Assembly (NCBI GenBank): GCA_049287025.1
Contig: JBAQFA010000009.1
Span: 24,802-88,801, forward strand
Direction of reading: 5' to 3'
From: Candidatus Magasanikiibacteriota bacterium
GTDB taxonomy: Bacteria; Patescibacteriota; Patescibacteriia; Magasanikbacterales; UBA922
Length of the DNA: 64,000 bases
Position 1 is the stretch's first letter; each line of letters begins with the position of its first letter. The notes beneath the pieces were generated by a model that searched no databases, was not told the DNA's origin, and saw nothing but the letters and a program-made list of their open reading frames with translations. The position numbers were made by a program, and so were the translations under genes. Below, one piece after another: positions 4,053 through 48,720 of this stretch.

Positions 4053-4071
4053 TGTTATACTTTAACTATAC

Positions 4072-12500: not shown

Positions 12501-12616
12501 TGTATGTCCGATAGACTTGTTGTCTGTCGTTTTGGTATATAAGGCAACTTTGCTTTGTTGTTGTGTGTGCTTGAGTGAACAACCATAATCCTTGGATGGG
12601 AGGTGAGACAGGGGAA

Positions 12617-13588
12617 ATGGCAAAGGATCTTTCGGAGAGAAAATTTCGAAGCACCGTGCGGTATGTGCGACGTCTATTGGGGGGTGGGACTGGTATTGTG
12701 ACTGCTCAACAGCTTCAGAAGGCTGGAAAACGAGCTCGCGGTCCTTTCTTTGACCCCAGAGACCATGGTCTGGTTCGTCCGTTCTTGGAGCGTGGAGCCG
12801 AAGAAGGACTCTGGGTGCTTGAGAACGGCGGTGGTCGGGCTGTCGTACCTGATGGTGTGTGGGAACAGTGGGATAGTCGTGGCGAGAGACGGCGTGAGGA
12901 ACGTCAGTCACAAGTTACGGCTCAAGCAGGAACCCGGCCAGCTTCAGTGCTGGCATCACTAGAGGAGGTCTCTATGACCGACGGTACGAAGAAGGGGGTG
13001 GGCGTATCCCCGAAAAATCCTATCTGGGTTTGGCTTCGGGCCAAGAAGGGTAGGTTGGGAGAGCTCATCGAGCTGTTCCAGGGGGTCCATGATGGTGCTC
13101 CGGTTCTCGCCAAGAAGGGTGGGGCTTTGAGTTTCCATTTTGCCCGCCCGCACCTAGTTCGGGGCCTGCAGAAGCTCGGGATGGAGCAGATCGACGATGG
13201 GTCAAAGATCCTGGCCACGGTCTTCTCCTACCTCGCCACGCCTGAGCAGGGGGTATTCGAGCGTGTGGGTTCTGGTGGGTACCCCCGCTACAAGCTCGGG
13301 CCGAAAGGGCAGAAGCTCTTGACCGAGGTCAGGAGCAGGGGCTCTGAGCCCATGCCACCGCCCGTTCCGTCCACGTCACCGACCGCTGCCCCCAGCCCGG
13401 GTGACCCGTTCGCCGAGGAGGAGGCCGCTCTCGTGGCCAAGCTCGAGGCGGTCCGTGCCAAACGCCGGCGCTTCATCGTGGTCGAGGACCTCGTGGTCAA
13501 GGCCATGAAGAAGGCCGGCATCGAGGGGACAGAGCAAGTTGAGTTCCTCAAGGCGCTCGTCAAAAAGCTCGGGGGTTCCTCCGAGTAG
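12617..13588 (+). CDS. GC-rich cassette ORF 1, unknown function (ORFan)
   Basis: This is a long ORF in a compositionally foreign block; the 60-nt line starting at 13321 contains 42 G+C. GGGAGGTGA lies upstream of the ATG at 12617, and the GTG at 12575 offered by the ORF track is unlikely. The protein has a Pro-rich linker and a C-terminal helical region. I recognise no family. Confidence 0.6.
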   Translation: MAKDLSERKFRSTVRYVRRLLGGGTGIVTAQQLQKAGKRARGPFFDPRDHGLVRPFLERGAEEGLWVLENGGGRAVVPDGVWEQWDSRGERRREERQSQVTAQAGTRPASVLASLEEVSMTDGTKKGVGVSPKNPIWVWLRAKKGRLGELIELFQGVHDGAPVLAKKGGALSFHFARPHLVRGLQKLGMEQIDDGSKILATVFSYLATPEQGVFERVGSGGYPRYKLGPKGQKLLTEVRSRGSEPMPPPVPSTSPTAAPSPGDPFAEEEAALVAKLEAVRAKRRRFIVVEDLVVKAMKKAGIEGTEQVEFLKALVKKLGGSSE

Positions 13589-13795: not shown

Positions 13796-14560
13796 TTATT
13801 TCAAACTGTTCCACAACATCTCCCAAACAAGACGTTGGTTATCAGCATTGGCTTGGTCTTCAATAATGACTAGGATCATACTCTCCCAAGAAACAGTCAT
13901 TACTCGATTGCCATAAATAACAGTGTGACTTTTGAATGATTTACCTTCGGGTAAAAATTTTACTTCACGTAATTCTTCTGTGGCACGTCTAGCTTCTAAA
14001 ATACCGGATTTGGATTTTTCCACAATTATTTTTGCTTTAACCCCTAATGAAATTCGTTCGTTGGTTAATTTTTTATACTCTTCTGGAAAAGTTGTTAATA
14101 GTTTTTCTGATGAACCATATACCAAATTTTCTTTTAGATTTACTTTGTGTCTAATCCTGTCTAGATAAGCATTCCATACATTTTTTCTACCCTCAAAATA
14201 TAATACTTTTGGTTTGTTGGCACCTTTGTTTTGTAAAGCCTCAAGTTCTGGTATTAGATCAGCAAAAAGTTGCTCTTTGTAACGAAGTGAATCCAAAAAT
14301 TTTTCTGGTTCCATGGCCACAAAATATCTTTTTCTGCCTTTGTTAACCACATTCATTAAGCCTTTAAGAATTAATTTTTCTATAATGTCGTATGTAGTTA
14401 CTCTATGTATGCCGGCTTTTTGAGCAATTGTCTGGACTGAAGCATGACCAAGCTCTAAGGTGGCTAAGTAAATTTCGGCCTCTTTGGCATCTAGACCAAA
14501 TTGTTGTAATTGATTAGGTAAAATCATAAAATGTTGTAGGAAAAGTTCTACATTTTTCAT
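13796..14560 (-). CDS. TrmB-family winged-helix transcriptional regulator (paralog 1)
   Basis: The N-terminal FGLDAKEAEIYLATLELGHASVQTIAQKAGIHRVTTYDIIEKLILKGL matches the TrmB wHTH pattern. The gene is low-GC. The start may be the internal Met at 14527. Confidence 0.8.
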   Translation of the reverse strand: MKNVELFLQHFMILPNQLQQFGLDAKEAEIYLATLELGHASVQTIAQKAGIHRVTTYDIIEKLILKGLMNVVNKGRKRYFVAMEPEKFLDSLRYKEQLFADLIPELEALQNKGANKPKVLYFEGRKNVWNAYLDRIRHKVNLKENLVYGSSEKLLTTFPEEYKKLTNERISLGVKAKIIVEKSKSGILEARRATEELREVKFLPEGKSFKSHTVIYGNRVMTVSWESMILVIIEDQANADNQRLVWEMLWNSLK

Positions 14561-21780: not shown

Positions 21781-21806
21781 AAAAAGCGGGCTTAAACCCG
21801 CTTTTT
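21781..21806. terminator. Bidirectional intrinsic terminator (recA / ychF)
   Basis: aaaaagcgggcttaaacccgcttttt is a perfect GC stem flanked by an A-run and a T-run. Confidence 0.8.
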
Positions 21807-21836
21807 GTTATGTGATATGTGTCTCGTGTTATGTGT

Positions 21837-28107: not shown

Positions 28108-28172
28108 ACAAAATACAATATACACGGAGCAAAATACAAAATCTATGTTGTTGTTTGTATATTGTATTTTGT
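28108..28172. repeat. Perfect 17-bp inverted repeat (palindromic element, second copy at 53548-53626)
   Basis: acaaaatacaatataca (28108-28124) faces tgtatattgtattttgt (28156-28172). Confidence 0.7.
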
Positions 28173-28177
28173 TTTTG

Positions 28178-28248
28178 TGGACCTAGGCAGAATCGAACTG
28201 CCGTCTCAGCAATGCGAATGCTATATATTACCACTATACTATAGGCCC
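28178..28248 (-). tRNA. tRNA-Ala (CGC)
   Basis: The reverse complement reads gggcctatagtatagtggtaa...tagca-ttCGCat-tgctg...ggcagttcgattctgcc-taggtcc-a, with G3:U70. Confidence 0.85.
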
Positions 28249-28373: not shown

Positions 28374-29123
28374 TTATTTTATCTCTGGGCAATGATCCCA
28401 CATAAATTTAAACCAGGTTTTATAGCTAGTGGCCAGTGGACGACTAATATTTACAAAAATGGTAATATCGTCACTAATCTTTGTTATTCCGGCGCCAGTA
28501 AAAGACACAACATGATCACCAAAAATGTCTACCATTGAAGGCGTAGAATATTCTTTAGGTAGGTATTTGTAAGGTTTACCTACGGCTTTTGGTACATGAG
28601 GAGCTTGTTTTAGTACTTCAAAATCAAATAAATGTTTATATTTAATACCTCGACGATCCGCATCAACTAAAAATTTATCCAAAAAGGTATTGAGTCTTGG
28701 GTCGAACCAGGCTCCCTTGGCGCCAATACAATAAACATCTTCTTTAGTAGATAATACATCACGAAGAAAATTTTTAAATCCTTCCAGACCTTTATATATG
28801 TAGGCAGCCTCTAAAACAGGATGTTTTTGGTATTCGTGCATCAAGTGTGGCATTTCTTTTTCTAGCCTAGTACGTTTTTCATCAACCAGTTCCATTAGCT
28901 TGGCTGGTTCCACTGGTTTAAATAAAGTGTCGCCATGCCCAATAACTTGAAACACTAAACCTTTTTCAATTAAGCGATTCATTGAGTCATAAATATTCCG
29001 GCGATGAATTTTACTTTTTTTTGAAATATTAGAAACCGTAGTTTGTTTTTCTTGTAAAAGTGTTTCGTAAATTTTGGCTTCGTTTATTGACAATCCTAGT
29101 TCTGTTAAAATTTGGCTATACAT
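28374..29123 (-). CDS. TrmB-family wHTH transcriptional regulator (paralog 2)
   Basis: The N-terminus is LGLSINEAKIYETLLQEKQTTVSNISKKSKIHRRNIYDSMNRLIEKGLV. The gene is low-GC and divergent from GC-rich cassette 2. Confidence 0.8.
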   Translation of the reverse strand: MYSQILTELGLSINEAKIYETLLQEKQTTVSNISKKSKIHRRNIYDSMNRLIEKGLVFQVIGHGDTLFKPVEPAKLMELVDEKRTRLEKEMPHLMHEYQKHPVLEAAYIYKGLEGFKNFLRDVLSTKEDVYCIGAKGAWFDPRLNTFLDKFLVDADRRGIKYKHLFDFEVLKQAPHVPKAVGKPYKYLPKEYSTPSMVDIFGDHVVSFTGAGITKISDDITIFVNISRPLATSYKTWFKFMWDHCPEIK

Positions 29124-29170
29124 AGCAAAAATATATTAAAGTGGTGTGAAGCCACACCACGTGGTGGTAT

Positions 29171-29198
29171 TTGCCACTCTTTATATATTATATATAAT
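29171..29198 (+). promoter_or_regulatory. Promoter of GC-rich cassette 2
   Basis: TTGCCA (29171-29176), a 16-nt spacer, then TATAAT (29193-29198). GCCTTGTT follows and is the shared start of the leader. Confidence 0.45.
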
Positions 29199-29296
29199 GC
29201 CTTGTTACTTTGCAAGCCGCTGCTGTGCATAAAAGCTAGATGGTGAGCGGGTAATAAGGGGTTCTTTGATAAAACAATTTGAGAAGCGAGGGACAA

Positions 29297-29479
29297 ATGG
29301 AAACTGGAGAAAGGCAAGATGAAGTTACTTGTTTGAAGAAAGAGTTGGAACATGACAAAGATGAGATATATTATTTGCGTTTGGCTATCCTTAATTTGAA
29401 TAGGAAAAAGGAGTATGTCAGAATGCAAAGGATGTTCCGTGGTGGAGAAGCTGTTCTCGACATGTGGGCGCGCTATTAA
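29297..29479 (+). CDS. Small coiled-coil protein, unknown function (cassette 2, first ORF)
   Basis: 60 aa. GAGG lies 5 nt upstream of the ATG at 29297. The sequence is charged with heptad-like spacing. I recognise no family. Confidence 0.4.
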   Translation: METGERQDEVTCLKKELEHDKDEIYYLRLAILNLNRKKEYVRMQRMFRGGEAVLDMWARY

Positions 29480-29515
29480 CACGGGAGAGGGCTGAAAAAG
29501 CCTAAGGAGGACCTC

Positions 29516-30103
29516 ATGCGTACAATGTTAGTCGCGTTGCTGTCGCTGGTGCTGTTTTCAAGTATTGCTCAGGCCGAAACCTACAACACCAGGTTGCTCC
29601 TGCACGGTCACAAGACCGTCGGTGAGGGATTCGGAGTCGCGGGTTGGGTGATTGCGCCCAACATCACAAGCGTACCGAACAAGTGGGTAACCCTCGTCGG
29701 CCCGTGCTACGATGGACAGGGGTGGGGTGTAGAATTGTTGGCAGGAGCGGTTGTTTCTGGTGGCGAGAGCAAGTTTCTTGTAGATGTCAGAATAACGTTC
29801 ACTCCAAAATTCTTCGGCATCCCCTTGAACACCTGGCACAACTTCCAGTGGATTCGAACCGGAGGCTCTGGCACGGGTTACTGGTATGGACAGGTTGACT
29901 GGGTGTTGCCACTCGGACTTGGACTTCTCGGTACAGAAACCGAGAACACGTTCAACGTGAGTGGCAATGACTGGTCAGTCGCGCCTCACGTCGTGATCTC
30001 TTTCGGTGATCACTTCGCGCTAGTGTTCGCTCCACAAGCTCATTTCAATGCACGTGGCTACACTGGCACGCAAGCGTGGGTTCGTACGGTCGTGAGTCAC
30101 TAG
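29516..30103 (+). CDS. GC-rich secreted protein, unknown function (cassette 2)
   Basis: AAGGAGG lies 5 nt upstream of the ATG. The Sec signal peptide is MRTMLVALLSLVLFSSIAQA/ET. The mature part is Gly/Trp/Val-rich with an alternating, beta-like pattern. The 60-nt line starting at 29581 contains 36 G+C. Confidence 0.7.
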   Translation: MRTMLVALLSLVLFSSIAQAETYNTRLLLHGHKTVGEGFGVAGWVIAPNITSVPNKWVTLVGPCYDGQGWGVELLAGAVVSGGESKFLVDVRITFTPKFFGIPLNTWHNFQWIRTGGSGTGYWYGQVDWVLPLGLGLLGTETENTFNVSGNDWSVAPHVVISFGDHFALVFAPQAHFNARGYTGTQAWVRTVVSH

Positions 30104-30177
30104 TCGTTCTTTTATAGGGGGGAGGACTTACTTGAGACTAGTCATCTCACGTGGACCGGCACGTAAAAATCCGGGAT

Positions 30178-30197
30178 TCTAGTTAGTACTAAGTAGA
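30178..30197. repeat. 20-bp near-perfect palindrome TCTAGTTAGTACTAAGTAGA (cassette 3' boundary)
   Basis: The half-sites tctagttag and ctaagtaga match at 8 of 9 positions. An identical copy lies at 31851-31870 and a half-site lies at 13725-13733. A hairpin-and-T-run terminator follows at 30202-30232. Confidence 0.7.
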
Positions 30198-30254
30198 TAT
30201 CAAAAAACCACGCCTCATCGGCGGGTTTTTTGTTTACTTTGGGTAATTTATGAT

Positions 30255-31049
30255 TTATTTTTTCTTTTTGGCAAGTTGAGAGAGTGGTACGGCCGTATTC
30301 CAAGCTAGTTCATATAGCGCTTTTAGAATTTTTACCAAAGATGTACTTTCTATCATTACACCAATTTTGTGTGGTTTATGAGTGACGAAGACAATTTTTG
30401 ATTCAAAAATATTAATTTCACCAAAAAAGTCCTCAATTCCTGGTAGTTGATTAGGTTTAAGCCATTTAATATGAGTATAAGTCATTGATCCTTTATAATT
30501 CGTCATCCAAGTTCTAGCTGTAGGTGTATCCAAAGCAATAATACGTTCATGAATTTTACGTTTACTGCGTTCACGATTATAGCCTTCACCCCAAGTTTTG
30601 AATTCCGGCCAACTCCAGCCTTCAAAATCGGCAATAGAAAGAATTTCGGTTTTTGAATCTAAGCTCTCCCAATAAATATTTTTTAAACCCTGGGTACCTT
30701 CTTGATATTTGATAACTGGCTTTTCGGCAAACTTATAAATCGAAAATAATTTTGGTAAAACTTTTTCTACATTTAATAATTTATCTTCCCATTGCTTTTT
30801 TTTGTTTTTAATATGTTGAACCAGACGCCCTGGATTTTCCGAAGTATAAATCATTTTCGATCCTTTGCCAGTCGCGCGATCTACCAAACCATACCAACCT
30901 AACTTTTCCAAAGCATAATAACCAAGCGTTCGGTTGATACCAGCTTTTTTGGTTATCTCGGCTACAGTAGCAGGACCAAGTTCGAGCAAGGCTAAATATA
31001 CTTTGCCTTCGGTTTCATCTAAACCTAATTGACTGATTAAATCTTTCAT
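30255..31049 (-). CDS. TrmB-family wHTH transcriptional regulator (paralog 3)
   Basis: LGLDETEGKVYLALLELGPATVAEITKKAGINRTLGYYALEKLGWYGLV. It is clearly homologous along its full length to the ORFs 31929..32732 and 48975..49763. Confidence 0.85.
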   Translation of the reverse strand: MKDLISQLGLDETEGKVYLALLELGPATVAEITKKAGINRTLGYYALEKLGWYGLVDRATGKGSKMIYTSENPGRLVQHIKNKKKQWEDKLLNVEKVLPKLFSIYKFAEKPVIKYQEGTQGLKNIYWESLDSKTEILSIADFEGWSWPEFKTWGEGYNRERSKRKIHERIIALDTPTARTWMTNYKGSMTYTHIKWLKPNQLPGIEDFFGEINIFESKIVFVTHKPHKIGVMIESTSLVKILKALYELAWNTAVPLSQLAKKKK

Positions 31050-31164
31050 GTTTTTATTCTACTATATATTTGGAAATGTGTCAAATCTATTTAACAGAAA
31101 ATTATTTATATAGCAAAATACTTTATAATTAGCCAAATATTAATAATTAACTAATAAAACAATA

Positions 31165-31193
31165 TTGACAGTTATTGTAAAATGTGGAATAAT
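31165..31193 (+). promoter_or_regulatory. Promoter of GC-rich cassette 3 with an operator-like palindrome just downstream
   Basis: TTGACA (31165-31170), a 17-nt spacer, then TGgAATAAT (-10 at 31188-31193). GTTCTAGAAT-gaaa-ATTCTGGAAC follows at 31198-31221 with a 9/10 inverted repeat. Confidence 0.55.
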
Positions 31194-31301
31194 AAGTAGT
31201 TCTAGAATGAAAATTCTGGAACCAAATTGATTGGGAGTGTCTGAACACTCTGTATATATGGTCTGGCGTTCTTTACACACGTGCTAGTTGGAGGGAACAT
31301 C

Positions 31302-31727
31302 ATGAAAAGGTGCATCAAGGCTCCGGGAATTAACGCTTTCAGTGGCGAGGGTGAAGTGGGGAAGTTAGAAGATGTCCCCGGAAAACAAGGTTGCCTTCCA
31401 TTTGATCCTAGTCCGGCCGTAGGGGGTTGGATGAAGGACGACAATTGTAAAGTGGAGGCACCACCAGAGGGGTGCACGCTCGAAGTGCCCGAAACGATCC
31501 TATGCCCCAATGGAAAAAACATCCCAGCTGGAAAGTACAAGGTGGGAAAACTGCCTGATGACAAGATTCTGCATCGCTATCATGATCACGTTCTGCCCCT
31601 CACCGATGAGAAGGGGGTCACCCGGCATTATTGCATTGAAAGTTCCGGTAGGCATGTCGACTGGTCGGGATGCGTCTGCATCTTGATTCGTGTGGAGACG
31701 CGCGAAGAGCGACTGCTGATTCAGTAG
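31302..31727 (+). CDS. GC-rich Cys-rich protein, unknown function (cassette 3)
   Basis: GGAGGG lies 6 nt upstream of the ATG at 31302, and the GTG at 31281 from the ORF track is rejected. 141 aa with 8 Cys. I recognise no family. Confidence 0.65.
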   Translation: MKRCIKAPGINAFSGEGEVGKLEDVPGKQGCLPFDPSPAVGGWMKDDNCKVEAPPEGCTLEVPETILCPNGKNIPAGKYKVGKLPDDKILHRYHDHVLPLTDEKGVTRHYCIESSGRHVDWSGCVCILIRVETREERLLIQ

Positions 31728-31792
31728 CCATAAATTAAGGGGGGCAAGACGTAGTCTGGATTCGTCAACCAGTCCACCTGCCGGAGAGGTAG

Positions 31793-31818
31793 GCGTAGGC
31801 CGGCGCGTGAGCTCGGCA
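31793..31818 (+). repeat. Conserved cassette 3' motif GCGTAGGCCGGCGCGTGAGCTCGGCA (REP-like)
   Basis: Near-identical 26-mers occur at 31793-31818, 33336-33361, 34176-34201, 34799-34824 and on the minus strand at 47677-47702. Each lies within 100 nt downstream of a GC-rich ORF stop. Confidence 0.85.
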
Positions 31819-31850
31819 CCGTGCGCCCGACACATTCAAAACGGGCAAAT

Positions 31851-31870
31851 TCTAGTTAGTACTAAGTAGA
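31851..31870. repeat. Second copy of palindrome TCTAGTTAGTACTAAGTAGA + terminator
   Basis: It is identical to 30178-30197. The hairpin aaaaaaccacgc...gcgcggtttttt follows. Confidence 0.7.
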
Positions 31871-31928
31871 TAACAAAAAACCACGCCCTATCAGCGCGGT
31901 TTTTTGTTTGTTTTGAATAATTTATAAA

Positions 31929-32732
31929 TTATTTTTTCTTTTTACTAGTTTTAGCAAGCGGTGTAGCTGTAATCCACGCCAGTTCAAAAATCGCTTTTAA
32001 AATATTAGATAAAGCCGTGCTTTCTATAATTATGCCAATAGGGATTGGTTTCTTGAATAAAGCCATCATTACTTTATTATCATAAATATTAATTTCACCA
32101 CCTAAATCTTTGATAGTTGGTACTTGTTCGGGTTTTATCCAGCGATAATTAATATATTTTTTTGATCCTTGATAATGTTTCATCCAATCTCTTCCTTCGG
32201 GTGTATCTAAAACCAAAACGCGTTCAGAAATTTTTCTTTTACTACGTTCGCGGGTATATTCTTTGCCCCATTTAAAAAGATTAAACTCTGGTGTATACCA
32301 AGCTTGCAAATCCAAGACTGATAAAATTTCTGATTTGGCTTCTAAAGTTTCCCAATAAATATTTTTGGCACCCTCAACACCTTCTTGAAATCTAACGCTG
32401 GGTTTTTCGGCCACGGTATAGAGTAAATAAAAATCTGGCAATTGTGATTCTAATTCTTTTTCTTTTCTTTCCCAAGTATTAATTTTTGATTTTACAAAAT
32501 GTTTTAAATTTTTGGGATCTTTGGCTACAAATTGAATGCGTTTCTTTTGTCCAGAAGAACGATTGACTAGGCCAAACCAACCAAGTTTTTCTAGGGCATG
32601 ATAACAAAGGGTGTGACCAATGCCAGCTTTGCGGGCAATGGCGCTGGCGCCAGAAGGTCCAAGTTGTAAAAGGGCAATATAGACTTTGGCTTCTGTTTCT
32701 TCAAAGCCAATGCTTTTAAGAATTTCTAACAT
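31929..32732 (-). CDS. TrmB-family wHTH transcriptional regulator (paralog 4)
   Basis: IGFEETEAKVYIALLQLGPSGASAIARKAGIGHTLCYHALEKLGWFGLV. The C-terminus LKAIFELAWITATPL...KKKK parallels that of paralog 3. Confidence 0.85.
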   Translation of the reverse strand: MLEILKSIGFEETEAKVYIALLQLGPSGASAIARKAGIGHTLCYHALEKLGWFGLVNRSSGQKKRIQFVAKDPKNLKHFVKSKINTWERKEKELESQLPDFYLLYTVAEKPSVRFQEGVEGAKNIYWETLEAKSEILSVLDLQAWYTPEFNLFKWGKEYTRERSKRKISERVLVLDTPEGRDWMKHYQGSKKYINYRWIKPEQVPTIKDLGGEINIYDNKVMMALFKKPIPIGIIIESTALSNILKAIFELAWITATPLAKTSKKKK

Positions 32733-32875
32733 AGAATTTTATTTTAGAATTTATTAGATATATTTATTATAACACAAAAATAAATTTATTTCAATATCAA
32801 ATTGAAAATAATTACTAGATTGTAAATTTTTATTTAAAATAAGCCAAAAATGGTTTATTTATTTTAAATTGAGTA

Positions 32876-32904
32876 TTGACATACTCCATAATCTAATGCA
32901 TAAT
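32876..32904 (+). promoter_or_regulatory. Promoter of GC-rich cassette 4
   Basis: TTGACA (32876-32881), a 17-nt spacer, then CATAAT (32899-32904). The architecture matches the minus-strand promoter at 48721-48749. Confidence 0.55.
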
Positions 32905-32906
32905 TA

Positions 32907-32946
32907 CTTGTTCTGACGATCGAGGATTGGCCTTGAGAGTTGGACG
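32907..32946 (+). promoter_or_regulatory. Conserved cassette 5' leader (CTTGTTCTGACGATCGAGGAT..CCTTGAGAGTTGGACG)
   Basis: It matches 48718-48679 (minus strand) at 37 of 40 positions and is closely similar to 48294-48258 (minus strand). It contains the hairpin TCGAGG-N5-CCT(C/T)GA. The C-to-T change keeps a G:U pair, and the loops differ. Confidence 0.7.
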
Positions 32947-32963
32947 CTAACTGGGAGGGCATC

Positions 32964-33311
32964 ATGGCCGAAGAGCACGAGGTACGGTGTGATAACTGCG
33001 CCCACCACCACGTAGGAAGCGGGGGTTGTTTCGGCAAAGTAGAGAGCAGGTTCCCCATGTACGATTTTCATAGAGGAGTAAAATACTGCATGTGGGGGGG
33101 GACCCCCAGCCGAATTGTGACCTTTTCTAGATTGAAGGGGTGCCCGCTGGGTGTGGAGTTTGTGCCACTCCGCTGGTGTGGTACCTGTGGCAACTTGGTC
33201 CAAACGGACCAAGGGTGTGCTCACCGGTTGGAGGGTTGCGAGGACCCCAGCTACAGGTGCTGGAAGATTCACCCCGACCTCAAGGAGGGTATGAGACAAC
33301 AGTACCTCTAG
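32964..33311 (+). CDS. GC-rich Cys/His-rich protein, unknown function (cassette 4, ORF a)
   Basis: GGGAGGG lies 4 nt upstream of the ATG at 32964. 115 aa with CDNCAHHH, CGTCG and other Cys pairs that suggest metal binding. I recognise no family. Confidence 0.65.
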   Translation: MAEEHEVRCDNCAHHHVGSGGCFGKVESRFPMYDFHRGVKYCMWGGTPSRIVTFSRLKGCPLGVEFVPLRWCGTCGNLVQTDQGCAHRLEGCEDPSYRCWKIHPDLKEGMRQQYL

Positions 33312-33335
33312 ACTACCCACCTATGGGTTAAACAG

Positions 33336-33447
33336 GCGTAGGCCGACGCGTGAGCTCGGCATTCCATTTTTGTCCAAAATATTATTTTTTGCATAAAGAT
33401 GGAGGCGCTCTTTAAAAACAAACAATCCGCACTGGTGGTGTTGGTTG
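33336..33447 (+). repeat. Inter-cassette junction repeat, copy A (~112 nt)
   Basis: The 3' motif is followed by the AT hairpin ccatttttgtcc...gcataaagatgg (33364-33402). CGCTCTTTAAAAACAAACAA and CACTGGTGGTGTTGGTTG follow that. It aligns along its full length with 34176-34285. Confidence 0.8.
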
Positions 33448-33480
33448 AAGAGATATAGTTCTGACTTAACGGAGGCTAGA

Positions 33481-34149
33481 ATGGGATACGACCCAAACCA
33501 AATGGCCCAAAGGTATTTGAGGGTCGACTGGGCCGACGTGAAGGGCTATGCCGCTTACGCGGTAGAGTCCACGTTCGGGGACCAAGTACCACCACCCATA
33601 AAAAGGAGACTCGAGGTATTGGACGGTATAAGGGACAAGGAAGGTCCCGAAGCCGCCTGTCTCGAGGCAGCAAGGATCGAATGTGAATGCCAAGTCGTTC
33701 AGGAGAAAAGAACTGAACGACGGCAGTGGAGAACGGGAGACGACCCATACAAATATGGGTCTTCGTTCTCTTCGAAGTTTGTCATCATAGATTATAATGG
33801 TGAAAAAAGATTCTACATCGCTCATAATTGGCATATGCAGGCCGTTTTCGTTTTCGCCAAAATTCTGGTGGATAGAAATAAAAAAGTCGATTTTCACGTT
33901 CTGGGTGGGGGGTGGTTCCGTGCTAATCATCCCCTAACTGTTGGCGGTTTTAGCGGTGATTTTAGCTCGTTCAAAATCTCTGACTTGAGTGAGGCGTTGG
34001 GTGGGCTTGAATTCACCGACAAAGATCCCGGTGATTGGCGCACGAATTCCATGCGTGCCACCCATATTGATTGGGCTTTTATCGAAAAAGCCCGTGACTC
34101 CTCTGAGAAATACAGGGAGGTATGGAAACGGATCTTTGAGGAGGAATAA
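33481..34149 (+). CDS. Unknown-function protein (cassette 4, ORF b)
   Basis: AGTTCTGAC (33457-33465) precedes GGAGG, which lies 5 nt upstream of the ATG at 33481. The TTG at 33445 from the ORF track is rejected. 222 aa. I recognise no family. Confidence 0.6.
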   Translation: MGYDPNQMAQRYLRVDWADVKGYAAYAVESTFGDQVPPPIKRRLEVLDGIRDKEGPEAACLEAARIECECQVVQEKRTERRQWRTGDDPYKYGSSFSSKFVIIDYNGEKRFYIAHNWHMQAVFVFAKILVDRNKKVDFHVLGGGWFRANHPLTVGGFSGDFSSFKISDLSEALGGLEFTDKDPGDWRTNSMRATHIDWAFIEKARDSSEKYREVWKRIFEEE

Positions 34150-34175
34150 TAGACGTAATCTGATTTCGTCAATCA

Positions 34176-34285
34176 GCGTAGGCCGGCGCGTTAGCTCGGC
34201 ATTCCATCTTTGTATAAAAATAATTTTATATAAAGATGGTTGTCGCTCTTTAAAAACAAACAACTAACACTGGTGGTGTTGGTTG
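34176..34285 (+). repeat. Inter-cassette junction repeat, copy B (~110 nt)
   Basis: See copy A. The hairpin ccatctttgtat...atataaagatgg lies at 34204-34239. Confidence 0.8.
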
Positions 34286-34339
34286 GTGATATATAAAAAG
34301 GACTGGTGGCGGACACAACCCTTGGAGAAGGAGTTGAAA

Positions 34340-34759
34340 ATGAGTACTGTCAAGATACTCATCATCGACGACGGTGATGAGAAAGTCGATCGACTGAAAG
34401 GTTATGATCGACTTGGCCACCTCCATGGTGTGGAGGTGGTACGCCGATGGAATTTTAATTCGGCTCTTAAGGAAGGGCCGTACGCGTTTAATGATTTGGA
34501 GCAAACAAAGTTTGACGTGATTATTTTGGACTTTACACTGCCAATGGACAGATTCGGTCATGAGATCTTGGATAAAATTAGACACAGTCCCAGGTTTATT
34601 ATTAACGAAAGAACGGTAGTAATTGGCATTTCCACAGAGTGGAAACGTCTATTACAATATGATTTCGGTTTGAATCTTGCGATCTACAAGGAGGAAACGA
34701 TGGCTGACGAACTGGAAACAGCCATCAAGTCCTTCGTCGCCACTGGCAAAGTCAAATAA
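34340..34759 (+). CDS. Stand-alone CheY-like receiver (REC) domain protein (cassette 4, ORF c)
   Basis: AAGGAG lies 6 nt upstream of the ATG at 34340. KILIIDDG, the putative phospho-acceptor in DVIILDFTLP, and VVIGIST fit a receiver fold. There is no output domain, and no kinase lies in the window. Confidence 0.65.
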   Translation: MSTVKILIIDDGDEKVDRLKGYDRLGHLHGVEVVRRWNFNSALKEGPYAFNDLEQTKFDVIILDFTLPMDRFGHEILDKIRHSPRFIINERTVVIGISTEWKRLLQYDFGLNLAIYKEETMADELETAIKSFVATGKVK

Positions 34760-34798
34760 TTTGGGGAGGGAAAGACGAAGCTTGGGATTTGTCACCCA

Positions 34799-34824
34799 AC
34801 GTAGGCCGGCGCGTGAGCTCGGCA
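34799..34824 (+). repeat. Cassette 3' motif copy (ACGTAGGCCGGCGCGTGAGCTCGGCA), end of the array
   Basis: It matches the 26-mer consensus at 25 of 26 positions. It is preceded by AGACGAAGCTTGGGATTTGTCACCCA, which resembles the sequence preceding the copies at 31793 and 34176. Confidence 0.8.
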
Positions 34825-34959
34825 ATCTCCTTTTTCGCGAAAGAAAGAGCAAAAAAGATCCAGTAAAACTGGGCTTTTTTGTTTGTGGATAAAATAGTTG
34901 ACAATGTGTCTAATATCGTGTATAGTATATAATATATTATAAACTATATACTATAAACT

Positions 34960-35460
34960 ATGAAAACAGACACTACTGACAAAATTTTAGAGTATATTAA
35001 AGAAAAAGGACAGGTTAAACCAAAAGATATAATTAATTATATTGGTTTTGGTGCGCCTGCTGTTTTTAGACAATTAAAAAAACTCATAAGTGAAGGTAAG
35101 ATAGAAAAAAGTGGCACTCCACCAATGGTTTATTATCATTTTCCGATTGACATAAAAGATATAGAGGTTAACGAAAAGAAAATTTTTGATATAAAAATAA
35201 ATTTAAAAGAATTTGGTATTCATCTTTCAGATAGAGAATCAGCCAAAAGATCGTTATTGTTTATTAAGATGAGGTATAAGAAAATTATTGATAATGTCAA
35301 TAAAATTGAAATTAATTTTGAGGATATAAAAGTACTAGGACCTGGCTGGGCTGACGAATTTATTTCTAATTTATCAAAAGAGTATCCAGGAAAGATAGTT
35401 TTGTTGCCTAGTAATAATGCTAGCATAAAAGCTTCGTTACAATTTATTAATATAAAATAA
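34960..35460 (+). CDS. wHTH + STAS-like (DUF4325-like) protein
   Basis: The N-terminal winged helix is ILEYIKEKGQVKPKDIINYIGFGAPAVFRQLKKLISEGKIEK. The C-terminal ~80 aa resemble DUF4325. The assignment is tentative. Confidence 0.5.
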   Translation: MKTDTTDKILEYIKEKGQVKPKDIINYIGFGAPAVFRQLKKLISEGKIEKSGTPPMVYYHFPIDIKDIEVNEKKIFDIKINLKEFGIHLSDRESAKRSLLFIKMRYKKIIDNVNKIEINFEDIKVLGPGWADEFISNLSKEYPGKIVLLPSNNASIKASLQFINIK

Positions 35461-43688: not shown

Positions 43689-43796
43689 GTATGTAAATTT
43701 TCAAAATGATTATAACAGGGTTTGTATTTTTTTTCAAGGGGTTAAAAACCCGCCTGTTGGCGGGTTGTTTAATGTTATTTGTTATCTGAATTCTGA

Positions 43797-44488: not shown

Positions 44489-47476
44489 ATGTCTGAAATC
44501 AAACCAAAACGTCGAGTTTATGGTTATACCAATAATCATGATGAAAAAATTAACAAAATAGTTCATGGTTATAACAAACCTGTACAGACTAAAATTAATC
44601 ATCCTAATAATAAAAAATGGCTAAAAATAGCAGTTTTACCTTTTCTTGTTATTGGATGGATATTCAAATTTTTGTGGTTTTTGTGGACAAAAAGACCAAG
44701 ATTGTCTCAATCAATAAAGAAAAAACTGCGCGCTAAATTGGGCTGGGTGATTTTAACATGTATAGTAATAGGATTTTTATTAGCGACTATTTTGGTAGCT
44801 TGGGCAAGTAAAGATTTACCTGACCCAGACAAATTGACCGACAGAAAAGTGGCCCAGAGTACCAAAATTTATGATCGAACGGGGGAACATATCCTCTATG
44901 AGGTGTTTGCTGATCAAAAAAGAACCATGGTGACATTGGATAAGATTCCTAAAAATTTAGTTAATGGTGTAATTGCTACTGAAGACAGTCAATTTTATGA
45001 GCACCATGGCGTTAGAATTACTAGTTTTATTCGCGCAGTTGTATACGGTGTGTTTACTAGCAAACAAATTGGTGGGACTTCTACTCTTACTCAACAATTG
45101 GTAAAGAACGCGATTTTAACCACAGAAAGAAGTTATATAAGAAAGTTAAAAGAAATAATTTTGTCTTTGCGTTTGGAACAAAAATATAGTAAAGACCAAA
45201 TTTTACAGATTTATTTTAATGAAATTCCTTATGGTTCTACCAACTATGGTGTACAGTCAGCGGCGCATAGTTATTTTGGTAAAGATGTTTCAGAATTAAA
45301 TCTCCAAGAATGTGCTACTTTGGCTGGTTTGCCACAAGCCCCCTCTCGTTTTCTTGGTGATCCAGAAGCTTTAAAACAACGTCGAGATTTTGTTTTGGGT
45401 AGAATGTTTGCCGAAGGCTATATTACCGAAGAAGAAAAAAACAAGGCTCAAGCTGAACCAATAACTTTGGAAAAAAGATTTGGAGAAATTAAAGCGCCAC
45501 ATTTTGTTTTGTATGTACGTCAACAATTGGTAGATATGTATGGTGAACAGACCGTAGATACTGGTGGATTAAAAGTTTATACCACTTTGGATTGGGGAAA
45601 ACAAGAATCAGCCGAAAAAGCGGTGAAAGAACAATCAGAAAAATTATTTGAAGCGGCTAAAGCTAATAATGCGTCTTTGGTAGCACTAGATCCAAAGACT
45701 GGTCAAGTATTGGCCATGGTGGGCTCGCGTGATTTTTATGATGACAGTATTAGTGGACAGTTCAATGTTGCCACTTTGGGCAAGCGTCAGCCTGGGTCTT
45801 CATTCAAACCAATTATTTATACGGCCGCTTTTGAAAAAGGTTATACTCCAGATACTTTGTTGTGGGATGTAAAAACTAATTTTGCGGTGTCAGGTAATTC
45901 TTATGAACCACAAAATTATGATTTGAAAGAACGTGGACCAGTGAGAATGCGCGAAGCTTTGCAAGGTTCTTTGAACATCCCCGCTGTTCAAACCTTATAT
46001 TTAGTTGGCGCAAAAAAAGGCGTAGAGTTTGCCGAACGATTGGGTTACACCACCCTTAGTGAAGGTGAATTTGGTTTGTCTCTAGTCTTGGGTGGTGGTG
46101 AAGTAAAATTGATTGAACATACCAATGCTTTTGCTGTGTTTGCTAATAATGGTGTAAAACAGAATTATAATAGTATTATGAAAGTGGAGGACAATGACGG
46201 AGGAATTTTGTATGAATGGAAACAAAAAAAAGGTGAGCGGATTTTGGATGAAAAAATTTCAGCGACAATTTCTAATGTACTTAGTGATGATGAAGCTAGA
46301 GCATCTGTTTTTGGTGCGGGCGGAGTTCTTACTTTACCCGATAGAAAAGTAGCCGTAAAAACTGGTACGACAAATAACTATGTGGATGCTTGGACAGTTG
46401 GGTATACGCCAAATTTGGTTGCCGGAGTTTGGGTGGGTAGAACAGACAATAAACCAATGAATAAAGGTGATGGTGGTAGTAGATTGGCGGCGCCGATTTG
46501 GAAACAATTTATGGTGGATGCTTTGAAAGATATGCCTATAGAAAATTTTCCTGACATGCCAGCCAATGATGCCCAAAAACCAATTTTGCGTGGTTCAATT
46601 GGCGGGGGTATTACTTTGCCGATTGATAAAATTACGGGCAAGATTGCCACTAGTTCAACACCACAACAATATATTGTAGAGAGAAAATATTTACCAGCTC
46701 ATTCTATACTATATTATGTAAATAAAGATGACCCACGCGGAGATCCACCACAAAACCCTAGTGATGATCCACAATATGCCATTTGGGAACAGGCAATTCA
46801 AGATTGGGTAGCGAGAAAAAAAGCTGAGAATCCAGATTGGAGTATTAGTTTTGAAGAACCACCGACTGAATATGATGATCTTCATTCTTTGGAACAAGCG
46901 CCGACTTTGGAAATTATTTATCCACAAGTTAGTAGCACACTTTATTCTCGACAATTGGATACAGATATACGAGCGACAGCGGAGCGCGGAGTAAGTAAAG
47001 TGAGTTATAAAATTGATGATAAAAATATTGCCACGATAAAAGATTATCCATTTAATCTTAGTTATAATTTGCGCGAGTTTGCCCCGGGTTGGCATACTTT
47101 GACTGTGACAGTGGAAGATGATATTGGTAATCGACGACAAGAACAGGTGCCATTCAATCTAGATGCCGAAGAAGAACCACCAGCAATTTATTTTTCTGAA
47201 AAAGATATAACACTCCAGGCCAGTGATTTTCCTCGGACATTTTTTATGAACCATTTTCGGATTAATGAAATTAGCGCCGTGGCAATTTACAAAAGACAAA
47301 ATGACAATAATACTCTGATTGCTAGTGTAAATGATTTTTCTAATTTGTTTAATAATCAAGTAATGTTTAGATGGGACGAAACGCCAGCGCCAGGGGAGTA
47401 TGAATTAATTGCGGAAATAAAATTGAAAGATGGAAGTGTGAGGGAGAGTGGAAGACTCCACGTTGTTATTGAATAA
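44489..47476 (+). CDS. Class A penicillin-binding protein (transglycosylase/transpeptidase) with long C-terminal extension
   Basis: The GT51 motifs are ATEDSQFYEHHG and GGSTLTQQLVKN. The transpeptidase motifs are SSFKP, SLN and KTGTT. A ~300-aa extra C-terminal beta-rich region follows. Confidence 0.9.
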   Translation: MSEIKPKRRVYGYTNNHDEKINKIVHGYNKPVQTKINHPNNKKWLKIAVLPFLVIGWIFKFLWFLWTKRPRLSQSIKKKLRAKLGWVILTCIVIGFLLATILVAWASKDLPDPDKLTDRKVAQSTKIYDRTGEHILYEVFADQKRTMVTLDKIPKNLVNGVIATEDSQFYEHHGVRITSFIRAVVYGVFTSKQIGGTSTLTQQLVKNAILTTERSYIRKLKEIILSLRLEQKYSKDQILQIYFNEIPYGSTNYGVQSAAHSYFGKDVSELNLQECATLAGLPQAPSRFLGDPEALKQRRDFVLGRMFAEGYITEEEKNKAQAEPITLEKRFGEIKAPHFVLYVRQQLVDMYGEQTVDTGGLKVYTTLDWGKQESAEKAVKEQSEKLFEAAKANNASLVALDPKTGQVLAMVGSRDFYDDSISGQFNVATLGKRQPGSSFKPIIYTAAFEKGYTPDTLLWDVKTNFAVSGNSYEPQNYDLKERGPVRMREALQGSLNIPAVQTLYLVGAKKGVEFAERLGYTTLSEGEFGLSLVLGGGEVKLIEHTNAFAVFANNGVKQNYNSIMKVEDNDGGILYEWKQKKGERILDEKISATISNVLSDDEARASVFGAGGVLTLPDRKVAVKTGTTNNYVDAWTVGYTPNLVAGVWVGRTDNKPMNKGDGGSRLAAPIWKQFMVDALKDMPIENFPDMPANDAQKPILRGSIGGGITLPIDKITGKIATSSTPQQYIVERKYLPAHSILYYVNKDDPRGDPPQNPSDDPQYAIWEQAIQDWVARKKAENPDWSISFEEPPTEYDDLHSLEQAPTLEIIYPQVSSTLYSRQLDTDIRATAERGVSKVSYKIDDKNIATIKDYPFNLSYNLREFAPGWHTLTVTVEDDIGNRRQEQVPFNLDAEEEPPAIYFSEKDITLQASDFPRTFFMNHFRINEISAVAIYKRQNDNNTLIASVNDFSNLFNNQVMFRWDETPAPGEYELIAEIKLKDGSVRESGRLHVVIE

Positions 47477-47676
47477 TTTTTGGTTTGATGACTGTTTACG
47501 TACTAATTACGAAACTTACGAATCTACGAAACTACCATTGTTAAATTGCCACATTGTTAAATTGTTAATGATACACACAGAAGAAAGTCTGTTAATGTAA
47601 ATTTTACGGAAATTAAACAAAAAATCCCTTCCTAAATGGTTGGGATTTTTTTGTCTCGTTTGTCGACAAGTCGAGA

Positions 47677-47702
47677 TGCCGAGCTCACGCGCCGGCCTAC
47701 GC
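47677..47702 (-). repeat. Cassette 3' motif copy (minus strand)
   Basis: The reverse complement GCGTAGGCCGGCGCGTGAGCTCGGCA is an exact match to the copy at 31793. On the minus strand it is followed by the terminator hairpin atccc...gggat and a T-run (about 47615-47652). Confidence 0.85.
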
Positions 47703-47784
47703 CTATTTAATCCATAGATGGAGTGCCACTTTTGAATGTGTGTGGCGCACAGTGAAGAGGTGTGGAACAAGCCGGCCATGTTTA

Positions 47785-48228
47785 TCAGATTTTGAATTCC
47801 TGATAAATCCTGGCCAGCACCTTTGCAGCCGTATGAACTCGTTCCAGGATGTTCGTGAGTGCGTCGGAGAATTCGTGCCACTCCCAGACAGTCTCTTCCC
47901 CGTCACTTTTCAGGTTGTAGCTACCCATCATGGCGGCAAACACTTGGTAGGCGTTAACGCTTCGGCCTGTTTTTTCCCCACGCAGTATACTGCCGTGTAT
48001 GTGTTGCGCGTAGTTTTCAAGCCACTCAACCAAATCTTCGTTCCCCTCTATTTTCTGTAGAAGCTGGTCTGCGATTTGATCAACGCTTTCCTTACAACAC
48101 TCTTCATCTGCGTCAAGTCGTAAGTACAGGCAAACGATGGCGATCAGATTGGGTGGAAGGTCATAGCATCCCTCAGGATAAGTCCTGAGCATAGGCTCGC
48201 CTTCTCCCCAGCTAGAAAGGTAGAGCAT
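47785..48228 (-). CDS. Unknown-function acidic helical protein (cassette 5, ORF b)
   Basis: AGGAGG lies 6 nt upstream of the ATG at 48228. 147 aa. I recognise no family. Confidence 0.6.
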   Translation of the reverse strand: MLYLSSWGEGEPMLRTYPEGCYDLPPNLIAIVCLYLRLDADEECCKESVDQIADQLLQKIEGNEDLVEWLENYAQHIHGSILRGEKTGRSVNAYQVFAAMMGSYNLKSDGEETVWEWHEFSDALTNILERVHTAAKVLARIYQEFKI

Positions 48229-48257
48229 CACTCACCTCCTTGTTTACAAAGAACGTT

Positions 48258-48294
48258 GTCCAACTTTCGAGGTACATCCTCGATTGTCAGAACT
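48258..48294 (-). promoter_or_regulatory. Conserved cassette 5' leader copy (AGTTCTGACAATCGAGGATGTACCTCGAAAGTTGGACA)
   Basis: This is the third copy of the leader, at an internal (intercistronic) position. The hairpin is TCGAGG-atgta-CCTCGA. Confidence 0.7.
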
Positions 48295-48385
48295 TCCTCC
48301 ATCTTTATACAAAAAATATTTTGGACAAAGATGGAAGGCCCGGCGCTTTGTTGACGCGCGGCCGGGCGAAGCGTGGCGGAGTGTG
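48295..48385 (-). repeat. Inter-cassette junction, short version
   Basis: On the minus strand, the GC hairpin gcccggc...gccgggc occupies the place of the 3' motif. The AT hairpin ccatctttgtccaaaatattttttgtataaagatgg (48334-48299) follows and is nearly identical to 33364-33402. It then runs straight into AGTTCTGAC. Confidence 0.7.
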
Positions 48386-48652
48386 TTACTCCTTGGGTGT
48401 GGAGAGGTGGAGAAAGTGGCGGATTTTTTGCCAGAAGATTTTGTTGGCTTCTATTCCGGCTTCCTTTTTCGCTCGAGCCTCCCTGATGCCCTTGTTCCTT
48501 TCGAGGCCACACTGGGGGCAGTAGGACATGTGAGGTAAGAGTTCATTTCCACACAGGCATTGTGGAAGAGCAACTCTCTTTACACCACAATATTGACAGA
48601 ACTCTGAGTATCCCACGTGACTACACATCGGGCACAGCCTACTCTCAAGCAT
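48386..48652 (-). CDS. Double zinc-ribbon protein (cassette 5, ORF a)
   Basis: GGAGG lies 5 nt upstream of the ATG at 48652, and the TTG at 48685 from the ORF track would fall inside the conserved leader. CPMCSH...CQYCG and CLCG...CPQCG form two Cys4 ribbons. The C-terminal tail is basic. Confidence 0.65.
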   Translation of the reverse strand: MLESRLCPMCSHVGYSEFCQYCGVKRVALPQCLCGNELLPHMSYCPQCGLERNKGIREARAKKEAGIEANKIFWQKIRHFLHLSTPKE

Positions 48653-48678
48653 TTCTTCCTCCAGAGTGTAAGGAATTT

Positions 48679-48718: not shown

Positions 48719-48720
48719 GA

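Follow-up and report, generated by a model that had tools for sequence, protein, structure and literature searches.

The DNA described here is a 64,000-nucleotide (nt) stretch (the window) of a Candidatus Magasanikbacteria genome (candidate phyla radiation, CPR; Parcubacteria) with a guanine-plus-cytosine (GC) content of about 35%, in which sharp islands of 45–60% GC stand out. A gene for a TrmB-type winged-helix protein adjoins every one of these islands, and the open reading frames (ORFs) carried by the islands, here called cassette ORFs, start behind Shine-Dalgarno (SD) tracts, whereas the AT-rich genes of the same window almost never do. The islands, as seen in the GC profile, are as follows:

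12.56–13.7 kb, plus strand: GC-rich island
29.2–30.2 kb, plus strand: GC-rich island, cassette A
31.2–31.85 kb, plus strand: GC-rich island, cassette B
32.9–34.85 kb (32910–34850), plus strand: GC-rich island with an array of three ORFs
47.64–48.72 kb (47640–48715), minus strand: GC-rich island with two ORFs

Identical junctions between TrmB genes and cassettes occur in three independent assemblies (one from NCBI, two from Logan); the GC mosaic is therefore no chimera, and misassembly at the cassette edges was ruled out. The 60-amino-acid (aa) ORF at 29297 was also called as a gene in independent assemblies.

An earlier note on this DNA, made from its letters, had assigned an SD-like tract and its spacing to nine cassette starts, and all nine assignments proved correct when the sequence was rechecked. 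The tracts, together with a second one inside the first ORF, are:

12599–12606, plus strand: GGAGGTGA, spacing 10 nt to the ATG at 12617 (ORF to 13588, 60% GC)
12962–12968, plus strand: second SD, GAGGAGG, spacing 5 nt to an in-frame ATG at 12974, the NCBI-annotated start of the ORF at 12617
29288–29291, plus strand: partial SD, GAGG, spacing 5 nt to the ATG at 29297 (60-aa ORF, 39% GC)
29504–29510, plus strand: AAGGAGG, spacing 5 nt to the ATG at 29516 (ORF 29516–30103, 195 aa); positions 29503–29518 read TAAGGAGGACCTCATG
31290–31295, plus strand: GGAGGG, spacing 6 nt to the ATG at 31302 (ORF 31302–31727, 141 aa)
32953–32959, plus strand: GGGAGGG, spacing 4 nt to the ATG at 32964 (Cys-rich ORF 32964–33311)
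33471–33475, plus strand: GGAGG, spacing 5 nt to the ATG at 33481 (ORF 33481–34149, 222 aa)
34328–34333, plus strand: AAGGAG, spacing 6 nt to the ATG at 34340 (ORF 34340–34759)
48658–48662, minus strand: GGAGG, spacing 5 nt to the ATG at 48652 (zinc-ribbon ORF 48386–48652, 88 aa)
48235–48240, minus strand: AGGAGG, extending to AAGGAGGTGA, spacing 6 nt to the ATG at 48228 (ORF 47785–48228, 147 aa)

A core of at least 5 nt thus precedes seven of the nine cassette starts, the other two having GGAGGTGA and GAGG, and the spacing is 4–6 nt at eight starts and 10 nt at 12617. Among 18 curated cassette starts, every one has an SD-like purine tract, most with a full GGAGG/AGGAG core and some with partial tracts (GAGG, GAGGTGA, AAGGGG, and CAGGAGA).

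To express this contrast as duplex energy, the 20 nt upstream of each start were paired with ACCUCCUUA, the canonical 16S rRNA tail, which may not be the host's own. The nine cassette starts gave a mean of −10.2 kcal/mol (range, −8.3 to −12.7), compared with a mean of −0.07 and a median of +0.4 kcal/mol for 46 non-overlapping AT-rich ORFs that served as the host set in the window (Mann-Whitney p = 4.4e-6), in line with the earlier note's statement that the host genes of the window lack an SD. As a composition control, all 20-nt windows on the sense strands of the cassettes were scored, and 11.5% of them reached −8.3 kcal/mol or lower; at this background, nine out of nine would arise by chance with a probability of about 3e-9. 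For windows preceding any ATG on the same strands, the fraction was 24%. Base composition is therefore no explanation for the SD contrast, because the background within the cassettes is just 11.5%. Scoring of SD strength over the window and related contigs found strong values (−8 or lower) for one of the 46 AT-rich ORFs of the window and for two of 28 in related loci. The only host start in the window with a G-run is that at 49909 (TTTAGGGGGT-ATG; GGGGG), and its spacing is unusually short (1 nt).

The few AT-rich genes with strong SD-like tracts lie at 49909–53469 in the window, at 1102–4830 in a related contig (L010), and at 3751–4131 in a second Magasanikbacteria contig (L014). Their tracts (TTAGGGGGT-ATG, TTAGGAGGAT-ATG, and TAAGGAGGAT-ATG) share an unusually short spacing of 1–2 nt and a T at −1. 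A gene for a giant LTD/PKD surface protein, located just 3′ of a TrmB gene, has such a short-spaced, G-rich tract in two genomes.

Host starts differ from cassette starts in a further respect. The base at −1 is T (U in the mRNA) in 34 of 42 AT-rich host starts (81%), against a T content of about 40% for the leader as a whole (binomial p = 8e-8), and in one of the 18 curated cassette starts (Fisher p = 4e-8 versus host). A is mildly raised at −5, −7, and −11/−12 of the host starts, with T at −1 being the dominant signal, and A-enrichment of the Bacteroidetes type (at −3, −6, and −11 to −14) was not found at these 42 starts. The same 'UAUG' start context was seen in host genes of related loci. 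It may represent the host's own initiation signal, perhaps acting via extended pairing with the anticodon loop of the initiator tRNA. Host leaders are A/U-rich and weakly structured, and the folding energy of the region from −30 to +30 is −4.8 kcal/mol for host genes versus −11.4 kcal/mol for cassettes, while GC at third codon positions (GC3) is 0.26 versus 0.59. Host and cassette genes can thus be told apart by two independent features of initiation, the SD and the −1 base. The claim that cassettes are unlike the host in both composition and initiation signals is hence borne out, and the contrast is even stronger than had been stated, because the host U(−1) signature, missing from the cassettes, adds to it.

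The SD contrast holds up, reaches statistical significance, and extends across this CPR group. In five related contigs (L004, which belongs to UBA11710, and L005, L007, L010, and L012), 28 AT-rich ORFs had a mean duplex energy of −0.6 kcal/mol and five GC-rich ORFs a mean of −10 kcal/mol, and the contrast is also present in L014, L016, and L017. For example, L014 has three GC islands with an SD-led ORF in each; one of these (4361–4852, complement) is a 70%-GC ORF, led by a GGGAGG SD and encoding a signal peptide, within a 40%-GC contig, the most extreme composition outlier seen. L017 carries four SD-led, GC-richer ORFs amid the SD-less core genes fmt, def, rplI, and rpmA, and it shows that such ORFs also occur without a TrmB neighbor. 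In a Moranbacteria contig of 52% GC, an SD (GGGAGG, spacing 5) is found only on the ORF divergent from a TrmB gene, and this ORF is not GC-enriched. SD use therefore tracks the TrmB-linked platform (the promoter, leader, and 3′ elements described below) and not GC content alone.

The five TrmB-family helix-turn-helix (HTH) genes of the window are:

13796–14560, minus strand: convergent with the 12.6-kb GC-rich cassette
28374–29123, minus strand: divergent from cassette A; without an SD and with T at −1
30255–31049, minus strand: divergent from cassette B; its orthologue in L004 has 96% aa identity
31929–32732, minus strand: divergent from the three-ORF array at 32910–34850
48975–49763, plus strand: divergent from the minus-strand cassette at 47640–48715

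All five match the TrmB winged helix (PF01978) with 50–59 bits (cut-off, 25.6). The C-terminal sugar-binding domain of archaeal TrmB was not found in them, and NCBIfam matches cover mainly the N-terminal 60–150 residues, far below the cut-offs. In a promoter scan of 29000–35000 and 47400–49000, each sigma-70 site scoring 11/12 directly precedes a gene start: four lie before cassettes, three before the divergent TrmB genes, and one (34898–34926) before the gene at 34960. The sites before cassettes, and the elements that accompany them, are:

29171–29198, plus strand: sigma-70-like promoter TTGCCA-16-TATAAT, 11/12, before cassette A
31165–31222, plus strand: promoter TTGACA-17-AATAAT from 31165, 11/12, before cassette B
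31199–31222, plus strand: operator-like inverted repeat GTTCTAGAAT-N4-ATTCTGGAAC at the predicted transcript start of cassette B
32876–32946, plus strand: promoter TTGACA-17-CATAAT, 11/12, and 37-nt leader (32910–32946), before the Cys-rich ORF
48679–48749, minus strand: promoter TTGACA-17-TACAAT, 11/12, and GTTCTGAC leader (48679–48715), two-ORF cassette
48257–48293 (also given as 48286–48293), minus strand: second copy of the GTTCTGAC leader, two-ORF cassette

GC-richness starts at about the predicted transcript start and stops at an intrinsic terminator. Several unrelated ORFs have in common a 37-nt leader of the form GTTCTGAC-(CGAGG...CCTYG hairpin)-GTTGGACG, whose conservation between cassettes ends just 5′ of the SD, so that the SD is part of the variable, ORF-specific portion. 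In this shared leader, GTTCTGAC...GTTGGAC flanks the CGAGG/CCTCG hairpin. GTTCT motifs at the predicted transcript starts are candidate sites at which the divergently encoded TrmB paralogues may bind. A GTTCTTT(A/G) motif was also observed 3–25 nt 5′ of the SD in several cassette ORFs of several genomes (29261–29267, plus strand; 31268–31274; 48248–48254, minus strand; copies in L004, L014, and L017, where it reads GTTCTTTAAAAGGAGGTG). A search of the cassettes against Rfam, with E-values up to 1, returned terminator-like leader matches only and no riboswitch or ribozyme.

Three elements recur after the stop codons of cassette ORFs: often an SD-like purine tract, a small H-type pseudoknot, and a hairpin core. 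The pseudoknot has the form GAC(G/U)-N4-[stem 2]-AUU-(C/A/U)GUC-A(A/U)-[stem 2′] and no match in Rfam. Both stems covary: across seven copies, 94.6% of cells are paired and five of eight pairs have changed on both sides, while none of 500 shuffles was as good and slid controls reached 20–48%. L004 and L005 also have copies of it. The 24-nt hairpin core, GTAGGCCG(G/A)CGCGTKAGC(T/C)CGGCA, has a G·U, G-C, or A-U closing pair and is likewise without an Rfam family. By exact-pattern scan it was detected in only one GTDB species representative (Magasanikbacteria UBA11710) and three metagenome contigs. In the window, these elements are located as follows:

30125–30149, plus strand: variant of the pseudoknot, 3′ of the 195-aa ORF, in which both stems carry compensatory changes
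31748–31818, plus strand: 3′ untranslated region (UTR) module of cassette B, with pseudoknot (31748–31772) and hairpin core GTAGGCCGGCGCGTGAGCTCGGCA (31795–31818)
33338–33361, plus strand: hairpin core GTAGGCCGACGCGTGAGCTCGGCA, 3′ of the Cys-rich ORF; an AT-rich hairpin and the CGCTCTTTAAAAACAAACAA junction element come next
34152–34201, plus strand: pseudoknot (34152–34176) and hairpin core (34178–34201) after the 222-aa ORF
34774–34824, plus strand: pseudoknot (34774–34799) and hairpin core (34801–34824), with SD-like GGGGAGGG 5′ of it and a terminator at 34859–34880
47677–47700, minus strand: hairpin core of the minus-strand cassette

Between the ORFs of arrays lie junction modules (33362–33457, 34202–34295, and, on the minus strand, 48296–48336), each consisting of an AT-rich hairpin (TTCCATCTTTGT...AAAGATGG) and then CGCTCTTTAAAAACAAACAA-N-CACTGGTGGTGTTGGTTG. 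They recall inter-cassette sites, and no recombinase lies near them. Neither the 3′ core nor the 5′ leader had an exact-pattern match in IMG/VR, and a phage origin of the cassettes was set aside.

The cassette ORFs at 12617 and 33481 had no relatives among 5.8 billion proteins, and seven of the nine cassette ORFs had no match in Pfam or NCBIfam, the other two showing a sub-threshold receiver domain (34340–34759) and a zinc ribbon (48386–48652). PADLOC gave nothing beyond weak HTH-level matches at the cassette loci, and a defense-system identity was rejected. The GC content of the cassettes ranges from 39% to 60%. The 195-aa ORF (29516–30103) belongs to a family of 93 clusters, and its AlphaFold2 model, built on a 50-sequence alignment, is of high confidence (predicted local distance difference test score, 93.3; predicted template-modeling score, 0.82), with a signal helix at residues 2–17 followed by 12 long antiparallel strands. 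Foldseek matched this model to the Protein Data Bank entries 4pr7 (KdgM; template-modeling [TM] scores 0.55/0.61) and 2wjr (NanC; 0.58/0.55) and to general porins, with E-values of only 6e-4 to 1e-2. The protein is thus predicted to be a 12-stranded, KdgM/NanC-like beta-barrel of the outer-membrane type. An aromatic C-terminal residue (F, W, or Y) is present in 27 of 50 family members, typically in an xVxNF motif; the copy in the window ends in ...VVSH and the closest CPR copies in ...INL. A C-terminal aromatic ...NF is the usual signal for outer-membrane insertion, and CPR bacteria are thought to be single-membraned, without an outer membrane. The family has one member on a contig of 5.18 Mb, a length well beyond that of CPR genomes, and it is also present on other CPR contigs; one copy there is TrmB-divergent, has 52% GC versus 40%, and is led by an AAGGAG SD. 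The beta-barrel family is the best single piece of evidence pointing to an imported cassette content.

Comparison with UBA11710 showed that TrmB genes have stayed together with their divergent promoters and cassettes as paired units, which stand in a swapped order. The homologue of the 141-aa ORF in L004 has 44% aa identity and is also preceded by an AAGGAGG SD, while the Cys-rich ORF has an orthologue with 51% identity and a ratio of nonsynonymous to synonymous divergence (dN/dS) of about 0.34, so this ORF is coding. Divergence between the window and UBA11710 was distributed as follows:

TrmB2 pair: dN 0.022, dS 0.90, 96% aa identity
Cassette beside TrmB2: dN 0.62, dS saturated, 44% aa identity
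TrmB3 pair: dN 0.15, dS 0.98, 79% aa identity
Cys-rich cassette beside TrmB3: dN 0.435, dS 1.27, 51% aa identity

Orthologous cassettes at a dS of 1.3–1.7 have kept both the SD and a high GC3. Nucleotide identity in the TrmB2 unit breaks down about 14 nt past the transcript start. Either the cassettes have been resident since the genomes split and have evolved quickly, or distant homologues have replaced them at the platform boundaries.

Several features elsewhere in the window were noted in passing. One cassette array adjoins tRNA genes, and Rfam at gathering thresholds found tRNAs only, and no rRNA, in the window. An intergenic repeat of about 27 nt, TTTTTGTTATCTG(C/A)TATCTGCAC, occurs at 692–721, 7057–7086, 21799–21828, and 43773–43795 (repeat families D5 and D10), and a 52-nt direct repeat with 79% identity is found at 28131–28182, where it abuts tRNA-Ala, and 25.4 kb away at 53577–53628. 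The region 55814–60497 is a very AT-rich block (26–33% GC) of small ORFs without homologues that ends in a large serine recombinase gene and has the look of an integrated element. Like host genes, the genes of this block lack an SD. The recombinase is the only one in the window according to the Pfam listing:

58805–60442: serine recombinase, abutting tRNA-Pro (60423–60497)

The explanation we favor, to which we give an even chance, is that foreign, SD-led ORFs have been captured in host-style platforms and that their SDs have been kept since these structured mRNAs need them. Ordinary genes of this genome start without an SD, behind leaders that are A/U-rich and weakly structured and that strongly favor U before the start codon. 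Beside the TrmB genes, platforms of host style combine a sigma-70 promoter close to consensus, an operator or leader of the GTTCT type, a 3′ pseudoknot and hairpin, and a terminator, and variable GC-rich units of SD plus ORF are set into them, singly or in arrays of two or three. Most of these ORFs would have come from GC-richer, SD-using bacteria, and at least one is probably from a family of outer-membrane beta-barrels of the kind typically found in double-membraned bacteria. Selection would then retain the SD because the mRNA around the start codon is too structured for the SD-independent route of the host, and base pairing between cassette mRNAs and a canonical 3′ tail of the 16S rRNA would bring in the 30S subunit. 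The earlier note had argued for a foreign origin, and this part gains from the beta-barrel family in a presumed single-membrane bacterium; it is also compatible with the two homologue-less ORFs and with the 70%-GC ORF of L014. A simple recent import, on the other hand, misfits several facts. The TrmB-cassette pairs are conserved at a dS of about 1, with SD and high GC3 kept. The GC-rich stretches are bounded by host-type sigma-70 promoters and terminators, and unrelated ORFs share lineage-specific 5′ and 3′ modules, neither of which such an import predicts. Other points weigh against capture as well. The SD-led ORF of the 52%-GC Moranbacteria locus is not GC-enriched, so a structure-driven need for the SD is not the whole story, and SD-like tracts are present in 3′ UTRs as well and show no depletion within cassette ORFs. 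No donor lineage has been identified, two ORFs lack homologues, and only one family points outside the CPR. The motif contrast and its significance, the anatomy of the platforms, their persistence across genomes, and the predicted barrel fold are thus observed, whereas a foreign origin of the other ORFs, a function of the SDs, and an anti-SD in this lineage are inferences.

The proposed role of the SDs also depends on the anti-SD of the lineage. According to Tsurumaki et al. (RNA 2022, PMC9297842), CCTCCT was detected in the 16S rRNA of only about 48% of Parcubacteria, and those without it overlap a subgroup lacking uL1; the text gives no anti-SD status for Magasanikbacteria. If Magasanikbacteria were among the CCTCCT-less Parcubacteria of that source, the SDs could not work as proposed, a further point against capture as set out above. 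In host coding sequence, SD-like pentamers number 59, compared with 89.9 ± 11.3 expected, and GGAGG is the most depleted of five permutations (observed/expected ratio, 0.52), with some non-SD pentamers depleted too; we take this as a weak, sequence-based sign of a working anti-SD.

Confinement of the GC-rich stretches to the platform, the shared modules, their persistence, and the Moranbacteria case together mean that the dedicated translational regime, which the earlier note had named as its alternative, is at least as much in play as a simple foreign origin. In its fuller form, this alternative is a native two-tier system in which the cassettes are lineage-specific, fast-evolving accessory genes, the SD marks a separate regime of TrmB-controlled genes, and GC-richness, SD, and structured UTRs are upheld in place, e.g., for mRNA stability or for high or conditional expression under TrmB. 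The conservation of TrmB-cassette pairs as units relative to UBA11710 despite their swapped order would fit such a system, as would the TrmB2 orthologues (dN of 0.022) whose adjoining cassette is just 44% identical yet has kept SD and GC. Moreover, UTR modules are common to unrelated ORFs, the homologue-less ORFs have no identifiable donor, the 52%-GC Moranbacteria contig has an SD on its TrmB-divergent ORF only, and even the AT-rich LTD/PKD gene just 3′ of a TrmB gene has a G-rich tract in two genomes. We nonetheless consider it doubtful, as the 195-aa family resembles a barrel of double-membraned bacteria and has a member on a 5.18-Mb contig, a 70%-GC ORF is hard to generate in place within a 40%-GC genome, cassette starts lack the host U(−1) signature, and SD-led, GC-richer ORFs occur without a TrmB neighbor in L017. 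Capture and a separate regime may also be combined. On this more doubtful and deliberately tentative view, Magasanikbacteria and related CPR would possess a novel TrmB-linked platform for gene capture and expression that houses foreign SD-led ORFs, with an anti-SD kept almost only for them; it would include a pore protein usable only outside the cell's own envelope, e.g., in the outer membrane of a host, and two-tier translation in a minimal genome.

The SDs could alternatively be non-functional relics, if the anti-SD was lost or is permanently masked, as reported for many Parcubacteria and for Bacteroidetes, and the tracts are the undecayed leftovers of recent transfers; cassettes would then be poorly translated or translated by the SD-independent route. 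Host genes are indeed essentially SD-free, CCTCCT went undetected in about half of the Parcubacteria 16S rRNA genes (PMC9297842), a cassette GC content of 39% to 60% fits imports of different ages, and internal SD-like motifs are not avoided in cassettes. Set against this, the SD core and its 4–6 nt spacing are kept in all compared orthologous or homologous cassettes, at a dS of at least 1, while the leader has diverged. This retention in all copies indicates selection on the SD in this lineage and argues against pure relics, which, given also the purine tracts at 18 of 18 curated starts, the GGAGG depletion in host coding sequence, and the presumed position of Magasanikbacteria outside the uL1-lacking subgroup with reported anti-SD loss, we regard as unlikely. 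It is less probable still that the purine tracts serve mainly as RNA-structural or regulatory elements, pairing with the CCUCG arm of the leader hairpin or acting as 30S-binding stabilizers in the manner of the SD-like tracts of the 3′ UTRs. GGAGG tracts do occur 5′ of the 3′ pseudoknot with no start codon after them, the leader contains a CGAGG/CCTCG hairpin, GGAGG outnumbers CCTCC on the sense strand by 23 to 2, and the GTTCTTT motif recurs 5′ of several SDs; however, the distance between tract and first ATG is a fixed 4–6 nt in conserved ORFs, even in those without the shared leader, the tracts fall within the variable portion of the leader, and the extended matches AAGGAGGTGA and GGAGGTGA follow the canonical 16S tail. 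That G-rich sequence yielded GGAGG by chance, with ATGs picked to suit, is scarcely credible. Although the cassettes are purine- and G-rich and 24% of sense-strand ATGs have a window at −8.3 or lower, a score of nine out of nine has a p of 3e-9 to 3e-6 at backgrounds of 11.5%–24%, the chosen ATGs are those used by gene callers and NCBI, and the same pattern appears in independent genomes.

Much of bacterial diversity belongs to the CPR, whose ribosomes have known peculiarities; to our knowledge, translation initiation in these bacteria has hardly been studied at the mRNA level. The window offers a clean internal contrast between SD-less U(−1) core genes and an accessory class with textbook SDs, and SD use in CPR thereby becomes open to direct testing. 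If the anti-SD has been kept, the reservation of the SD for regulated, probably imported genes would constitute a natural experiment on SD loss and retention; if it is missing, the cassettes would reveal by what route foreign genes can be expressed in its absence. In addition, the recurrent TrmB-linked cassette architecture with its new conserved RNA or DNA modules is not known to have been described before, and a predicted porin-like protein in a presumed single-membrane bacterium bears on the interaction between episymbiont and host.

Several known systems invite comparison. Cassettes of integrons likewise comprise variable ORFs with their own ribosome-binding site, placed one at a time or in short arrays after a fixed promoter, with conserved structured junctions between ORFs and a content that differs among related genomes. 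The platforms here are in contrast dispersed, each with a TrmB-type regulator of its own, their cassettes are only putatively mobile, and neither an IntI-type tyrosine recombinase nor an attI was found beside the cassettes, whose neighbors are TrmB-family HTH genes. The leader end GTTGGAC and the GTTAAAC of some 3′ modules fit GTTRRRY, and no matching inverse core (RYYYAAC) or attC-like bulged stem was seen at the cassettes, for which no dedicated attC model was run. With no integrase and no convincing attC, membership in the integrons was rejected. Acquired islets of atypical GC content resemble the cassettes in lying 15–25 points above the GC of the genome, in carrying ORFs that are homologue-less or patchily distributed, and in the location of one array by tRNA genes; unlike in such islets, the odd composition here is confined to the transcribed unit, bounded by a promoter and a terminator of host type, mobility genes are lacking at the cassettes, and pairs persist at a dS of about 1. 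The 195-aa protein has the signal peptide, the 12 predicted antiparallel strands, and, in its family, the ...NF end of KdgM/NanC porins (TM scores, 0.55–0.6), from which it differs in its 10–14% sequence identity, in the ...VSH end of the window copy, and in belonging to a group thought to have no outer membrane.

With respect to translation, the anti-SD loss in Parcubacteria (PMC9297842) concerns the same superphylum, and SD helices may not form in about half of its members, which matches the SD-less core genes seen here; that study examined 16S rRNA motifs rather than mRNA leaders and does not describe SD-led gene subsets. The closest parallel in the organization of leaders is with the Bacteroidetes, where most genes are likewise SD-less on A/U-rich, unstructured leaders and a small, distinct set has strong SDs. 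Work from the Fredrick laboratory, including that of Jha and colleagues in 2021, is said to have described such a minority of SD-led genes in SD-poor Bacteroidetes/Flavobacteria. There, the SD-led set consists of rpsU and housekeeping regulators and the context signal of A-rich, 'Kozak-like' positions, whereas here the SD-led genes are GC-rich accessory cassettes beside TrmB genes and the host signal is U at −1. SD-poor lineages and acquired genes of atypical composition are already known phenomena, and the present finding is a variation on both.

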